Part shown: piece after piece, positions 1,618 through 5,573 of the stretch
Position numbering within the stretch: the first letter of the stretch is position 1
Layout: the number at the start of each line of letters is the position of its first letter
DNA from: a virus
Lineage: Duplodnaviria > Heunggongvirae > Uroviricota > Caudoviricetes
Strand: one strand, 5' to 3'
Virus record (IMG/VR): IMGVR_UViG_2531839128_000025
Length of the DNA stretch: 5,573 nucleotides
Notes under the pieces: generated by a model
Told to the model about the DNA's origin: nothing
Databases searched by the model: none
The model's input: only the letters and a program-made list of their open reading frames with translations
Program-made: the position numbers and the translations under genes

Positions 1618-2037
1618 CTATGATGCGTTTTGTGCTTTCTTTTTACGGATTTCTTCGTAGATCATATTGTAATACTGTTTTTTCTCTTCAAGAGTTTTTA
1701 ATAAGTTATCCGCTTCACTTTCTGGCAGTTCGTCTAAGAGATCTAAAAAAATACGTTGTCGTGGCGTTAGAACCCTTGTTTCATAACTGGAGGCTGTGTT
1801 CGTTGATGATGAAACGATACCATCCATCCATCCCCGGGGTAACCCAAAGGACTCTTCGATAATCTCCACCATATCATCAGCGATCCGTTTTTTTCCCTTT
1901 TTCCCCTCTGGGTACAACATTCTTGATACATAAGAAGGCTCGCGCCCGATCTTTCTGGCCACGTTAACCGCTTTACCATCGCATTTCTCATCACGAATTT
2001 TGATGAGTTGCTGTCGTCTAAATTCATATTTGTCCAT
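1618..2037 (-). CDS. CI-type phage repressor, N-terminal helix-turn-helix, no S24 peptidase domain (RacR-like immunity repressor)
   Basis: 139-aa ORF; HTH-like segment GKAVNVARKIGREPSYVSRML followed by ...RIADDMVEIIEESFGLPRGWMD, consistent with the phage CI repressor HTH family as I recall it. Divergent from a cro-like gene with operator repeats between them. Too short and lacks an obvious Ser/Lys autocleavage region. No Shine-Dalgarno upstream of the ATG at 2037; a TATTAT -10 (minus strand, plus coordinates 2049..2044) sits 6 nt upstream of the ATG, suggesting a leaderless transcript. Confidence 0.85.
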   Translation of the reverse strand: MDKYEFRRQQLIKIRDEKCDGKAVNVARKIGREPSYVSRMLYPEGKKGKKRIADDMVEIIEESFGLPRGWMDGIVSSSTNTASSYETRVLTPRQRIFLDLLDELPESEADNLLKTLEEKKQYYNMIYEEIRKKKAQNAS

Positions 2038-2137
2038 AGGTAAATAATAGATGCGATTACTGCAAGGTAAACAACCTGTGGGTATTGACTTTTGTTTACC
2101 TGTAGGTATTCTTTGCTGTGTTTACTAAGGAGTAGCT
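2038..2137. promoter_or_regulatory. divergent promoter/operator region (OR-like) between repressor and cro-like gene
   Basis: Direct repeats AACCTGTGGGTATT (2073-2086) and TACCTGTAGGTATT (2097-2110), 24 bp apart. Inverted repeat GGTAAACAA (2066-2074) / TTGTTTACC (2092-2100). Rightward promoter candidate: -35 TTGACT (2085-2090), 16-bp spacer, -10 TATTCT (2107-2112), then RBS AAGGAG (2128-2133) and ATG at 2138. Leftward promoter candidate: -10 TATTAT with -35 TTTACC on the minus strand. Operator repeats overlap both promoters. Confidence 0.5.
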
Positions 2138-2419
2138 ATGGAAGAATTAAGAATATTTCTCAATTCTCTTTCGTCAGATGAACAGCGTATGTTTGCATGC
2201 GAGTGTGGTACCAGCATCGGTTATCTAAGAAAGGCATTGAGTAAAGGTCAAGTGTTAGGGGCATCGTTATGTGTCCTTATTGAGCGAGCCAGTAATGGTG
2301 AAGTTACACGTCAGCAACTAAGGCCTTTTGATTGGATGAATATTTGGCCCGAGCTGGAAGATACCAAAACGTTAACACAACCACTTTCTAGGAGCTTGAT
2401 TCATGAAAATCAAGCATGA
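2138..2419 (+). CDS. Cro-like HTH transcriptional regulator, YdaS family (Cro/CI-type; putative antitoxin-like partner of YdaT)
   Basis: 93-aa ORF with strong RBS (AAGGAG, 5-nt spacer). HTH-like TSIGYLRKALSKGQ and the C..IERA.NGEV....LRP.DW pattern I associate with YdaS-type Cro proteins. First gene of the rightward operon opposite the repressor. Confidence 0.8.
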   Translation: MEELRIFLNSLSSDEQRMFACECGTSIGYLRKALSKGQVLGASLCVLIERASNGEVTRQQLRPFDWMNIWPELEDTKTLTQPLSRSLIHENQA

Positions 2420-2828: not shown

Positions 2829-2899
2829 CTGACAATAGCCATATCGAATCGCTTCCGGCAACTCGTGAGTAAAAAGATTCGGTATCAGAAGAGGTGAGT

Positions 2900-3970
2900 A
2901 TGGCTAACGCTTGGCTCAGATTATGGCATGACATGCCAAATGACCCTAAGTGGCGAACAATTGCCAGGGTGTCAGGGCAGCCAATTGCAACAGTGATGGC
3001 AGTGTATATCCACCTCCTGGTGAGCGCGTCACGAAATGTCACGCGAGGTCACATTGATGTCACGACAGAAGATTTAGCAAGTGCGCTCGACGTGACAGAA
3101 GAGGTAATTGATTCAATTTTGCAGACGATGCAGGGGCGGGTACTTGATGGTGATTTAATCACTGGATGGGAAAAACGCCAGGTGCTTAAAGAGGACAACG
3201 GCAATATTTCGCAAACCGCAAAATCTCCGGCAGAGCGCAAGAGGGCGCAGCGAGAGAGGGAAAGAAAGCGGGAACAAAATGGCGATTGTCACGGCGCGTC
3301 ACGAAATGTCACGCACATGTCACGACGAGTCACGACAGATAAAGATACAGATAAAGATACAGATCAAGAAGATCAAAACACTATGGTCCATGGCGTAAAA
3401 AACGCCACGAACCAGGCAGGGGATGTTCAGACCGTCAATCCTGGTCAGCCAGCAGGCACGACACCGGAAGCCGATTCAGCGTATGCGCTGAAAGCCGATT
3501 CGGGCGCTGTGCAGCAGGTGATGACCCCAAGGCCGGAGCAATCACACCAACTGCAGCAGCCTGAAGCCGATTCCGCCATTCAGCGGGAAGCCGATCGGGT
3601 AGTCCCGGAAAACACCGGGCTGTCTGTGGGACGAGTGGATTATCCGGATGTATTCGAACAGGTCTGGCGGGAGTACCCGTTGCGTGCCGGAGCAAACCCG
3701 AAGAAATCCGCTTTCAGTGCCTGGAAGGCCAGATTACGCGAGGGGGTGCCACCAGAGGCCATGCTGGATGGCGTGAGGCGTTACGCAAGATACTTGGCGG
3801 CTACCGGGAAAACGGGAACGGAATTTGTTCAGCGAGCGACGACGTTTTTTGGACCGGACCGGAATTTTGAGAACCCCTGGTTGCTCCCGGTAAGCGGCAC
3901 GAACAACCAGCGTTGTGTGAATCATATTTCTGAACCGGATAACGAAATTCCGCCGGGCTTCAGGGGGTAA
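2900..3970 (+). CDS. phage replication initiation protein (replisome-organizer / lambda O-like initiator) carrying its own origin iterons
   Basis: ORF 2894..3970 in the track; the likely start is ATG at 2900 (GAGG at 2891-2894, 5-nt spacer), with GTG at 2894 as alternative. N-terminus ANAWLRLWHDMPNDPKWRTIARVSGQPIATVMAVYIHLL resembles phage replisome-organizer N-domains. C-terminus FEQVWREYPLRAGANPKKSAFSAWKARLREGVPPEAMLDGVRRYARYLAATGKTGTEFVQRATTFFGPDRNFENPW resembles the conserved C-terminal motif of phage DnaD/O-like initiators (recalled). Internal phased repeats plus an acidic DKDTDKDTDQEDQ linker mirror lambda ori-within-O architecture. Confidence 0.85.
   Translation: MANAWLRLWHDMPNDPKWRTIARVSGQPIATVMAVYIHLLVSASRNVTRGHIDVTTEDLASALDVTEEVIDSILQTMQGRVLDGDLITGWEKRQVLKEDNGNISQTAKSPAERKRAQRERERKREQNGDCHGASRNVTHMSRRVTTDKDTDKDTDQEDQNTMVHGVKNATNQAGDVQTVNPGQPAGTTPEADSAYALKADSGAVQQVMTPRPEQSHQLQQPEADSAIQREADRVVPENTGLSVGRVDYPDVFEQVWREYPLRAGANPKKSAFSAWKARLREGVPPEAMLDGVRRYARYLAATGKTGTEFVQRATTFFGPDRNFENPWLLPVSGTNNQRCVNHISEPDNEIPPGFRG
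3024..3064 (+). repeat. iteron-like cluster A: four GTCAC(G/A) hexamers phased at 10-11 bp inside the replication gene N-domain coding region
   Basis: GTCACG at 3028, 3038, 3059 and GTCACA at 3048; inverted copy CGTGAC at 3091-3096. The 21-mer GCGCGTCACGAAATGTCACGC (3024-3044) is repeated exactly at 3294-3314. Confidence 0.5.
3284..3380 (+). repeat. iteron cluster B plus AT-rich tandem repeat: putative replication origin within the initiator gene
   Basis: Five GTCACG hexamers at 3288, 3298, 3308, 3319, 3329 (helical-turn phasing), immediately followed by tandem 12-mers AGATAAAGATAC x2 (3337-3360) and a degenerate AGATCAAGAAGATCAAAAC. The iterons-then-AT-rich layout in the linker between N- and C-domains parallels lambda ori in gene O. 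Confidence 0.55.
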
Positions 3971-4010: not shown

Positions 4011-4436
4011 GTGGCAAAAGTTTTTACACAAGAAGAGCGGGAAAAAATTAAAGGGCAGGTTGTTGAACTCGTACGCCAGAGTGGGCGCGAGACGTTACGA
4101 CAACTGGAAACTAAAACTGGGGCAACAAGATATCTGATGAGTGTTCTGGCCAGAGAGCTGGTTGCCAGTGGCGATGTATACAACTCTGGTTACGGGTTAT
4201 TCCCGTCTGAACAGGCGCGTAAGGACTGGCAAAATGCCCGTATAAAGCTCTCAAGGGCAAAGCTGAAGAAACCATCTGCGGTTGATCCGGACCTTATCTG
4301 GTCATTACCTGACGGAGAAATACGTCGCTACGATAGTTGTCTAAACATAATCTGTCGCGAGTGCCGGAAGAGCGAAGTTATGCAGCGCATTCTGGCATTT
4401 TATCAGGGAAATGTTAGGTATTTTAGACGTTACTAG
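4011..4436 (+). CDS. hypothetical phage protein, 141 aa, N-terminal winged-helix-like segment; GTG start
   Basis: Strong RBS AGGAGG (4001-4006) 4 nt upstream of GTG at 4011. N-terminal VVELVRQSGRETLRQLETKTGATRYLMSVLARELVASGDVY looks like a wHTH. C-terminal half has a small Cys cluster (CLNIICRECRK). Family not identified; sits where a helicase loader would be in Rac. Confidence 0.7.
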   Translation: MAKVFTQEEREKIKGQVVELVRQSGRETLRQLETKTGATRYLMSVLARELVASGDVYNSGYGLFPSEQARKDWQNARIKLSRAKLKKPSAVDPDLIWSLPDGEIRRYDSCLNIICRECRKSEVMQRILAFYQGNVRYFRRY

Positions 4437-4463
4437 ATTAAAGGGCATTAGTTCAGATATGCA

Positions 4464-4576
4464 TTGACATTTTCATGGCACAAGGTAGAGCTAGCGTGGT
4501 TGTTCGCTTTGTGCCAAGAGTGGTCATTGATAATATTTTGGTGGGTTACATCTGTCAATGTTTCAGGTGATATGAT
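4464..4576 (+). promoter_or_regulatory. candidate promoter/operator region upstream of the AT-rich cargo ORF
   Basis: TTGACA at 4464-4469 with no good -10 at proper spacing. Extended -10 TGaTATGAT at 4568-4576 with no clear -35. 8-bp inverted repeat CATTGACA (4462-4469) / TGTCAATG (4553-4560), and a third CATTGA at 4525. Weak hairpin GGCACAA (4477-4483) / TTGTGCC (4509-4515). All read by eye; none conclusive. Confidence 0.25.
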
Positions 4577-4663
4577 ATACAAATAGCCAGACTTAGACTG
4601 GCATGCTGTTTATTTTTATATTATGGGTGTGCCACATGGATTTAAAACTTATTGAGATATGAC

Positions 4664-5573
4664 ATGGATACTTTTCATAATATTTTGCTTGAGCACATAG
4701 ACAGCCTTTTAAAAGAGAGACTTGATTTATCTGGTGACGCTGATATCGAAAAAGAAATTAATAACCTAATTCCCAAAATAGCCATTGTCGTTAAAAAATC
4801 TCTTATTGGCTCGGCCAATGCAATGCTTAGAGAACATCGTTCTCTTTGTGATGAATTTGTTGAGAGAAATATTTCAAGATGGGCAGAGGCTTTTGATTTG
4901 CTCGAAACACTTATAGTGATATGCACGGAGTCCGGTGAAGAGTTCAATCGTTCTTATAGACCACAAGCTGCCTCTGAAGAGGATGTGGTTTTTGATTTAG
5001 TCGTTCGGCATCACGCAAGAGCTTGCCACATCGCCAACGAAATTTTGTGTCTCTTAAAGAATGGATTTGCAGATGCTGCCCAAGCGAGATGGCGAGCACT
5101 TCATGAGGTAGCGGCCACAGCTATGTTTATAGCAAAGCATGGAAAAGAGTGTGCTGAGCGCTTTTACTACCATGAAGTGGTTGATTCATATACTGGAATG
5201 TTGGAACACAAAAAGTACGAGCACCGGTTAGAAGCAAAAGGTCCAACTATTGAAGAAATAGCTGAGTGTAAAGTTCAATTTGATCTATTAATAAAAAAAT
5301 ATGGCAAAAAATATGCAGATAATTATGGCTGGGCATCTTATATTTTCCCTAACCATAATAAAGTGGGGTTTGGAGCTATTGAGAAAGATGTTCAGTTAGA
5401 ACACATGCGCCCTTATTATAAGTGGGCGAGTCAGAATGTACACACCGGTTCCAAGGCAATGAGAAATAGGCTTGGTCTCTGTGAAACTGGTGATGATATA
5501 TTATTGGTCGGGCAAAGTGATTCAGGAATGGCTGATCCAGCCCATGCTACTGCTATTAGTTTGATGCAGATTA
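4664..5573 (+). CDS. AT-rich cargo ORF of unknown function, partial (303+ codons, 3' end beyond window); candidate accessory/defence gene with HEPN-like R-x4-H motif
   Basis: ATG at 4664 opens a frame with no stop to the window end (protein starts MDTFHNILLEHIDSLLKERLDLSGDADIEKEINNLIPK...). It is absent from the supplied track only because it runs off the window. Strong A/T bias in codons, unlike the replication genes upstream. Weak SD (GAGA). Contains RWRALH (R-x4-H). No family confidently recognised. Confidence 0.75.
   Translation, partial: MDTFHNILLEHIDSLLKERLDLSGDADIEKEINNLIPKIAIVVKKSLIGSANAMLREHRSLCDEFVERNISRWAEAFDLLETLIVICTESGEEFNRSYRPQAASEEDVVFDLVVRHHARACHIANEILCLLKNGFADAAQARWRALHEVAATAMFIAKHGKECAERFYYHEVVDSYTGMLEHKKYEHRLEAKGPTIEEIAECKVQFDLLIKKYGKKYADNYGWASYIFPNHNKVGFGAIEKDVQLEHMRPYYKWASQNVHTGSKAMRNRLGLCETGDDILLVGQSDSGMADPAHATAISLMQI

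Follow-up and report, generated by a model that had tools for sequence, protein, structure and literature searches.

Divergent promoters and operators of the switch

The window analysed here is a 5,573-nucleotide (nt) stretch of DNA from the tailed-virus record IMGVR_UViG_2531839128_000025 of the IMG/VR database. Positions 2038-2137 of the window are the right operator region (OR) of a lambdoid Escherichia coli prophage with an uncharacterised immunity type. This region separates a leftward repressor gene from a rightward gene for a Cro analogue. As in a lambdoid switch, the repressor and Cro-type genes are divergent, and they lie 100 base pairs (bp) apart. The region contains a rightward promoter (PR) and, back to back with it, a leftward candidate promoter for repressor maintenance (PRM), both of the sigma-70 type, and a second group of operators, the left operator region (OL), lies on the far side of the repressor gene. 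The features of the switch are as follows.

1538-1551 (ATACCCATAGGTAT) and 1563-1576 (ATACCCATGGGTAA), no strand: OL pair, both sites perfect, spaced by 25 bp, just past the repressor gene's 3' end
1618-2037, minus strand: repressor gene, an open reading frame (ORF) of 139 residues matching phrog_5736 ("transcriptional regulator", 4e-70)
2037, minus strand: predicted PRM transcription start at the A of the repressor AUG, from the geometry, its conservation and the RACE-proven (rapid amplification of cDNA ends) homologue PaaR2
2049 to 2044, minus strand: TATTAT, -10 element of PRM, with a 16-nt spacer from the -35 element; it is followed by 6 nt (ttacct) and then the repressor ATG (2037 to 2035)
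2057-2070, no strand: operator O3, TTACTGCAAGGTAA, with its centre at -26.5 relative to the repressor ATG, over the -35 element and spacer of PRM
2071 to 2066, minus strand: TTTACC, -35 element of PRM, which doubles as a half-site of O3
2072-2085, no strand: operator O2, CAACCTGTGGGTAT, with its centre at -41.5 relative to the repressor ATG, predicted to serve PR repression and class II activation of PRM
2085-2112, plus strand: PR, with TTGACT (2085-2090), a 16-nt spacer and TATTCT (2107-2112); predicted start near 2118-2120
2096-2109, no strand: operator O1, TTACCTGTAGGTAT, with its centre at -65.5 relative to the repressor ATG, over the spacer and -10 element of PR
2127-2132, plus strand: AAGGAG, Shine-Dalgarno (SD) sequence of the cro-like gene, 5 nt before its ATG at 2138 (-8.6 kcal/mol); leader of about 19 nt
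2138-2419, plus strand: gene for the Cro analogue, a YdaS-family helix-turn-helix (HTH) protein of 93 residues (PF15943, 9e-6, below the curated cut-off; phrog_35)

A first-pass annotation of this DNA had proposed a divergent PR/PRM pair, with TTGACT and TATTCT as the rightward elements and a TATTAT hexamer 6 nt upstream of a repressor ATG that lacks an SD. Direct reading and a consensus scan both recover the rightward elements, and TATTAT is present at the proposed distance. The 18 nt upstream of the repressor ATG pair with the anti-SD sequence at +1.9 kcal/mol, and no SD is found there. The divergent pair itself is borne out by the sequence and by a geometry that is conserved across related loci. 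The A at 2037 is the seventh nucleotide after the PRM -10 element and the sole purine 6 to 8 nt beyond it. The ATG at this position is the first possible start after an upstream stop codon. A start further downstream is excluded because the N-terminus that begins at this ATG, MDKYE..RR, is kept in all homologues.

The same annotation described operator repeats that overlap each of the two PR elements. These are the 13-nt direct repeats ACCTGTGGGTATT (2074-2086) and ACCTGTAGGTATT (2098-2110), which lie 24 bp apart. They are better described as halves of 14-bp dyads of the form (T/A)TACC-N4-GGTA(T/A). The described overlap stands, since O1 overlaps the PR -10 element by 3-4 bp and O2 touches the PR -35 element by 1-2 bp. 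The count of sites does not: OR contains three operators, the third (O3) lying over the PRM -35 element, and the OL pair is additional to these. The proposal that the two promoters share operators is upheld by O1-O3 at 2057-2109, which are enriched and keep their positions in relatives. Matches to TACCNNNNGGTA with at most one mismatch occur seven times in the window (1.17 expected), and none of 200 shuffles reaches seven. Five of the seven fall within the two control regions.

The 14 bp between the -35 elements of PRM (2066-2071) and PR (2085-2090) are filled exactly by O2. Repressor bound at O2 could occlude PR and contact RNA polymerase at PRM. O3 is predicted to be the site of negative autoregulation, the preferred Cro site, or both.

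Two further matches to the motif are not counted as operators. The first, TTACCTATGGACAA at 2031-2044, lies over the repressor start codon, contains two core mismatches and is found only in the close E. coli lineage. Its left half-site is perfect and its right half matches at three of five positions; it could be an extra autoregulatory half-site or a chance occurrence. The second, a perfect TACCGCTGGGTA at 2577-2588, is inside ydaT and is probably a chance feature of the coding sequence. It is broken (TTCC) in an O157:H7 prophage that carries the same repressor.

OL also carries a candidate leftward promoter (PL) for the ydfA-dicF-dicB operon, made up of TTTACT (1563 to 1558), a 17-nt spacer and TATCCT (1540 to 1535). 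An earlier candidate, TTTACC-17-TAAATA, is demoted in favour of this one by homology with PR and with OL in relatives. On the repressor strand (1529-1577, minus), the OL pair forms a 16-bp hairpin (-23.4 kcal/mol, z -5.5) followed by the UCCUUCUUUU U-run, about 40 nt past the repressor stop codon. A terminator-like scan match at 1539-1575 is reinterpreted as this operator pair, with a dual role as a terminator being possible. The hairpin may thus be the intrinsic terminator of the PRM transcript, made of the operators themselves. Transcripts from either PL candidate would start within or past the hairpin and would escape it. The T-run that follows OL is found in the window and in Klebsiella-type loci only.

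Conservation of the geometry in related loci

The geometry of the switch is compared among 24 genome loci, which are the window and 23 loci that encode a homologous DNA-binding domain. The latter come from Yersinia, Arsenophonus, Edwardsiella, Klebsiella, Brenneria, Leclercia, Aeromonas, Paraburkholderia, Herbaspirillum, Alcaligenes, Stenotrophomonas, a Xanthobacteraceae metagenome-assembled genome and others. A scan of viral contigs returns only copies that are at least 99% identical, and these are uninformative for the comparison.

In most of the genome loci, operators are centred at -66.5, -41.5 and -26.5 from the repressor ATG (within 1 nt; one locus is off by 3). A site at the O3 position (-26.5 to -29.5) is present in 21 of the 24 loci. 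An OL pair with 25-26 bp spacing is present downstream of the repressor gene in 17. The detected O2 sites each contain exactly one core mismatch, and O1 and the OL sites are usually perfect. The O2 sites of two loci (L003 and L017) contain more mismatches and fall under the scan threshold. The pattern of a single mismatch in O2 fits what would be expected of a cooperatively filled site.

In Klebsiella loci that encode a homologous repressor and no YdaS-like neighbour, the motif is kept both upstream of the repressor gene and as an OL pair. The operator motif therefore appears to follow the repressor's DNA-binding domain. These loci also bear on the reading in which the dyads are sites for YdaS/Cro or another factor, or are chance palindromes. 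Cro shares its operators with the repressor in lambda-type switches, so sequence alone cannot assign the sites to one protein or the other. The motif is, however, enriched well beyond chance and co-occurs with the repressor DNA-binding domain throughout the 24 genome loci, including those without a YdaS-like neighbour. It also recurs as the OL pair downstream of the repressor. Assignment of the dyads to another factor or to chance is thus scarcely credible, and the dyads are treated here as repressor operators.

The distance between the PRM elements and the start codon is also conserved. The -35 element, TTTAC(C/T), is separated from the ATG by 28 or 29 nt in 18 of 19 genome loci and by 31 nt in the remaining one. 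This distance is the sum of a 16-17-nt spacer, the -10 hexamer and a further 5-7 nt. The complete arrangement of -35 element, spacer, hexamer, 5-7 nt and ATG recurs in 19 of the 24 genome loci and, beyond these, in 21 distinct metagenome loci, which makes about 40 diverged loci ranging from Enterobacterales to Burkholderiales. In loci from enterics and Aeromonas, the hexamer at the -10 position has the form TAnnnT (TAGAAT, TAAGAT, TAGACT, TAAACT, TAATCT or TATGCT). Exceptions at this position are two loci with weak hexamers (L022 and L012) and one odd locus (L179).

The metagenome loci come from an independent scan, which yields 36 distinct upstream regions. A TTTACC -35 element is present in 21 of these regions, at 28 nt (two regions), 29 nt (17 regions) or 30 nt (two regions) from the ATG. 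In the 21 regions, TATGAT, TAAAAT, TAGAAT or GATAAT is located 6-7 nt upstream of the ATG. Other metagenome regions, which are of the Klebsiella type, contain TAGAAT or TAAAAT 7 nt before the ATG.

When eleven loci are aligned without gaps, conservation is confined to the operators, both -35 hexamers and TA..aT at -12 to -7, and is absent from -19 to -13 and from -6 to -1. As judged from these aligned sequences, the pattern is the mark of selection for a -10 element whose distance from the start codon is fixed. The randomised flanking positions indicate that there has been ample time for drift. In two loci (L023 and L025), the repressor carries an N-terminal extension of 7-9 residues, and TAAGAT is still located 6 nt before the new ATG. 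The repressor gene starts with ATG in the window, in all 23 other genome loci and in every metagenome locus examined. Translation of leaderless mRNAs relies strongly on an AUG start.

On the opposite side of the switch, a PR -35 element of the form TTG(A/C)nn that abuts O2 is conserved in the related loci. The distance from this element to the cro ATG is not constrained as on the repressor side and takes two forms. In eleven loci it is 46-57 nt and a GGAG SD is present. In seven loci it is 29-30 nt and no SD is present. The seven (L015, L017-L021 and L024) are beta-proteobacterial and other non-enteric loci. Their sequences predict that both divergent mRNAs are leaderless, with the whole switch contained in 82-85 bp.

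Predicted leaderless expression of the repressor and its alternatives

A leaderless gene must fix the distance of its promoter and operators to the start codon, and nothing obliges a conventionally leadered gene to do so. The conserved geometry therefore favours a leaderless repressor mRNA. The PRM transcript is likely to start with the A of the repressor AUG or no more than about 2 nt from it. The first-pass annotation had proposed a leaderless repressor mRNA by likeness to lambda cI. This proposal gains support from the conserved geometry and from two related switches with mapped starts, PaaR2 and RacR. In the CP-933P prophage, the PRM933P transcript starts at the A of the paaR2 ATG, as determined by 5' RACE, N-terminal sequencing and mass spectrometry (PMC8630535). 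In the Rac prophage, the main racR promoter, PracR3, yields a leaderless transcript by primer extension, and the repressor autoregulates and represses ydaS (PMC9638921).

From the anatomy, statistics, conservation and homology described here, the steps of binding, transcription initiation, activation and repression are drawn by analogy with lambda and CP-933P. Repressor bound at O1 (in the PR spacer and -10 element) and at O2 (abutting the PR -35 element) would shut PR. At -41.5 from the PRM start, which is the position of lambda OR2, O2 would be placed to activate PRM. Occupation of O3, over the PRM -35 element, would give negative autoregulation or would let Cro shut PRM. PRM (TTTACC-16-TATTAT) would initiate transcription on the A of the repressor AUG, leaving the maintenance mRNA with neither a 5' untranslated region (UTR) nor an SD, and this mRNA would be translated by the leaderless route. 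Through the OL pair at 1538-1576, the repressor would also turn off the leftward ydfA-dicF-dicB operon. A YdaT site at 2396-2413 would give rise to an additional, leadered establishment transcript.

One alternative places the PRM start a few nucleotides upstream of the AUG, which would give a near-leaderless mRNA with a 5' UTR of 1-5 nt. Among the relatives, the hexamer is separated from the ATG by 5 to 7 nt, and purines occupy -1 and -2 in several of them. In the window, however, TATTAT is followed at 6-8 nt by a single purine, the A of the ATG, and the start of the PaaR2 transcript, which has the same 6-nt spacing, maps to the A of the paaR2 ATG (PMC8630535). A UTR of this length would also be too short to contain an SD, so the translational consequence would be the same. 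This variant is unlikely for the window.

A second alternative involves the establishment phase, for which the window contains two further features.

2396-2413, no strand: exact YdaT recognition site, TTGATT-N6-AATCAA, spanning the ydaT start codon
2403-2828, plus strand: ydaT, encoding the CII analogue YdaT of 141 residues (PF06254, above the cut-off)

The recognition motif is that reported for YdaT of CP-933P (PMC9986795), where YdaT activates the establishment promoter PRE933P (PMC8630535). The YdaT of the window is near-identical to PDB entry 3c4r (5.5e-91) and also matches 8bt1, the structure of CP-933P YdaT (3e-80). By analogy, YdaT probably also drives a leftward, long-leadered transcript into the repressor gene. 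The left half of the YdaT site is lost in Sakai Sp11 and in Rac.

In this second alternative, the repressor is made solely from leadered upstream transcripts, which start either at a YdaT-activated promoter of the PRE type near the ydaS/ydaT junction or inside ydaS, and TATTAT is not a working -10 element. The exact YdaT site, the activity of YdaT at PRE933P and the chance-level frequency of promoter hexamers in the window are in its favour, as are the additional upstream starts of racR (PMC9638921). A gene expressed only in this way would not, however, keep its -35 element and operators 28-30 nt from the start codon across classes of Proteobacteria while the intervening sequence is randomised. 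Neither would it shift the hexamer along with a new ATG, as is seen in L023 and L025. There is also no SD for a leadered transcript to use. Exclusive expression from leadered transcripts is thus distinctly improbable. A leadered transcript of the PRE type would most likely add to PRM and coexist with it, as PRE does in lambda, and an upstream start would be compatible with a leaderless PRM transcript.

Several observations weigh against a leaderless, O2-activated PRM. The consensus scan finds two promoter-like hexamers in the window and expects 2.1 from shuffles. At this chance level a single sequence cannot carry the interpretation, and its significance comes solely from position and conservation. 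The PRM -10 element is good (a 5/6 match), so activation is perhaps not needed. The centres of O2 and O3 are 15 bp apart (23 bp in lambda), so the logic of autoregulation may differ. In the beta-proteobacterial loci, the hexamer at the -10 position is a weak TGAAAT or TTGAAT, and a better-scoring hexamer without a matching -35 element is located 16-18 nt from the ATG. Some homologues contain GGAGG or GAGGG 12-13 nt before the ATG (L009 and L005), which could serve transcripts from upstream promoters. The related loci share descent, so the counts given above are not independent events.

Leaderless initiation from PRM remains the preferred reading for the window. A broader reading, held tentatively and at a little less than an even chance, is that the switch is an old and widespread module. 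In such a module, the repressor AUG, the promoter and the three operators are locked in a fixed geometry in which the AUG is the transcription start by design. Some beta-proteobacterial versions would be compressed to 82-85 bp, with both mRNAs leaderless. If this is true, the placement of an operator at -42 would reflect a general constraint on repressors that activate their own leaderless maintenance promoter and not a peculiarity of lambda.

Prophage setting and comparison with known systems

The window is an early-control region, and its positions 1400-2900 are 99.8% identical to many E. coli chromosomes. A 361-bp segment around the switch is found in 824 of 5,426 complete E. coli genomes, including O157:H7, O55:H7 and O103 strains. 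The immunity region is carried by no sequenced phage in the phage database, where the nearest DNA-binding domain is that of mEp043 cI (65% identity). Two Sakai prophages were also examined. Sp11 contains only the ydaT and ydfA parts, with the repressor gene and the intergenic region absent, and Sp12 carries paaR2. Judging by these two prophages, the published dRNA-seq of O157 Sakai is probably uninformative for this switch.

In strain 90-9281, where the region lies at 4583867-4584668 of NZ_CP024243, the gene order is int, xis, exo, ydfD, dicB, ydfB, ydfA, a "hypothetical protein", a YdaS-type regulator and a YdaT-family protein. These are followed by a replication protein and then by DUF977 and DUF5677 genes. 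The order of the ORFs in the window agrees with this arrangement. A replication gene is present beyond ydaT.

2894-3970: gene for an O-like initiator, a window ORF

Within this gene, iteron-like repeats that contain GTCACG and three copies of ACAGATAAAGAT in tandem occupy 3028-3066, 3288-3336 and 3335-3370. A lambdoid origin is usually found at this place. In the region 4400-5573, the guanine-plus-cytosine fraction drops to 0.35-0.40 across an intergenic stretch and the DUF5677 gene. This region resembles a moron-type insertion that separates the replication region from the nin-type one.

On the left side, a full-length Rfam match to the antisense small RNA DicF is present at 224-275 on the minus strand (76.7 bits; gathering score 48). 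From its gene content, the leftward operon below the predicted PL would be ydfA-ydfB-...-dicF-dicB, as in the Qin prophage. The repressor would then control a cell-division inhibitor module.

The repressor is annotated merely as a "hypothetical protein" in E. coli genomes. Its N-terminal HTH domain is joined by a disordered linker (residues 77-87) to two C-terminal helices, which form a domain of the DicA/PaaR2 type. No Pfam family matches it, and the S24 peptidase domain (PF00717) is absent. Sequence and profile searches of the PDB with the repressor return nothing significant. An AlphaFold2 (AF2) model with a predicted local distance difference test (pLDDT) score of 82 shows this layout, with a helical HTH domain ahead of the disordered linker and the two helices at the C-terminus. 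The fold that matches the model best is 5d50, the antirepressor-controlled Rep of a Salmonella phage, and this match is weak (E 1.6e-3).

The N-terminal 85 or so residues of the repressor are 63-82% identical to those of prophage repressors of the LexA family (PF00717) that are 221-242 residues long. The same N-terminal part recurs in other short repressors. As it lacks the S24 domain, the repressor is presumably not self-cleaving, and induction probably does not proceed via RecA-stimulated autocleavage. The C-terminus matches DicA residues 84-129 (E 1e-7) and contains the helical domain LxPxxxxLLxLFxxLPExE. The N-terminus has no significant alignment to DicA. The repressor is distantly homologous to PaaR2 (BLASTP E 9e-9, 23% identity over 90 residues that span the end of the HTH and the C-terminal domain). 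It has no significant alignment to RacR. Some E. coli copies of the repressor gene (proteins P0015 and P0018) are frameshifted alleles, presumably from decaying prophages, and take their first 50 or so residues from an overlapping frame that corresponds in the window to the ORF at 1767-2027.

The YdaS-like protein shares 36% identity with YdaS of CP-933P (E 5e-17) and scores 25.8 bits against PF15943, for which the cut-off is 30 bits. Its similarity to YdaS of Rac is weak.

The design in which a repressor is expressed from a leaderless mRNA is already known from lambda cI, PaaR2, RacR and PY54, and no new mechanism is described here. For the repressor of a common E. coli prophage immunity type, the analysis provides an operator consensus, (T/A)TACC-N4-GGTA(T/A), a promoter map and a predicted mode of expression. 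It also provides a predicted control of the cell-division inhibitor operon ydfA-dicF-dicB by this repressor. Comparison of the related loci shows a leaderless layout that, on their sequences, appears to be under selection.

The closest architecture is that of CP-933P (Sp12) from E. coli O157:H7, in which all three regulators are homologous to those of the window (PMC8630535, PMC9986795). The divergent repressor and cro genes are separated by 97 bp in CP-933P and by 100 bp in the window. The paaR2 gene is preceded by GATAAT-taccac-ATG, so that the -10 element is 6 nt before the ATG in both. Both also contain a YdaT motif at the ydaS/ydaT junction, PL/OL on the far side of the repressor gene and dicB downstream. 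PaaR2 and YdaS footprint the entire intergenic region of CP-933P (PMC8630535). The operators are different. CP-933P contains 18-bp inverted repeats of the GTTTAGTAA type, four of them in OR, whereas the window contains TTACC-N4-GGTAA sites, three of them in OR. In the intergenic region of CP-933P there are GTTTAGT-type repeats and no TTACC-N4-GGTAA sites. The paaA2-parE2 toxin-antitoxin pair that follows the repressor gene in CP-933P is absent from the window, and the N-terminal part of PaaR2's DNA-binding domain has no detectable similarity to the window repressor. On sequence grounds, the window is a heteroimmune member of the CP-933P-type architecture.

In the racR-ydaS-ydaT region of Rac, a repressor gene is likewise divergent from a YdaS-YdaT operon (PMC9638921). 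Its operator motifs are unlike those of the window, racR has three starts, and RacR is not detectably similar to the window repressor. The window is thus a third, heteroimmune member of the YdaS/YdaT-type switches, for which a leaderless repressor mRNA has been shown twice before.

The dicA-dicC region of Qin shares the leftward operon (ydfA, ydfB, DicF and dicB) with the window, and both repressors are short and lack a peptidase domain. It differs from the window in its Cro analogue, which is of the DicC type and not the YdaS type, and the N-terminal DNA-binding domains are unlike. Upstream of K-12 dicA (L106, 1400-1437), no SD is present and a -10-like TAGCAT is located 9 nt before the ATG. 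dicA may be near-leaderless.

The cI mRNA that lambda makes from PRM is leaderless. Counted from the A of the cI ATG, the centres of lambda OR1, OR2 and OR3 lie at 66, 42 and 19 bp, and the operators of the window have theirs at 65.5, 41.5 and 26.5 from the repressor ATG. In lambda, the -10 element TAGATT is followed by taacgt and then by the cI ATG, which is the same 6-nt spacing as in the window, and the cI-cro gap is likewise 100 bp. The PR -35 element is TTGACT in both. A second operator cluster at PL and a CII-type element at the cro/cII junction are also common to both. The third operator lies over the -10 element in lambda and over the -35 element in the window, 15 bp from O2 rather than 23 bp. 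The operators are 17 bp in lambda and 14 bp in the window, and OL contains three sites in lambda and two in the window. The proteins are unrelated in sequence and, unlike lambda repressor, the window repressor lacks the S24 self-cleavage domain.

In the immB region of the telomere phage PY54, both the cI and the cro mRNAs are leaderless by RACE (PMC4488713). This is a precedent for the doubly leaderless switches of 82-85 bp predicted among the relatives. The proteins and operators of PY54 are unrelated to those of the window, in which only the repressor mRNA is predicted to be leaderless.

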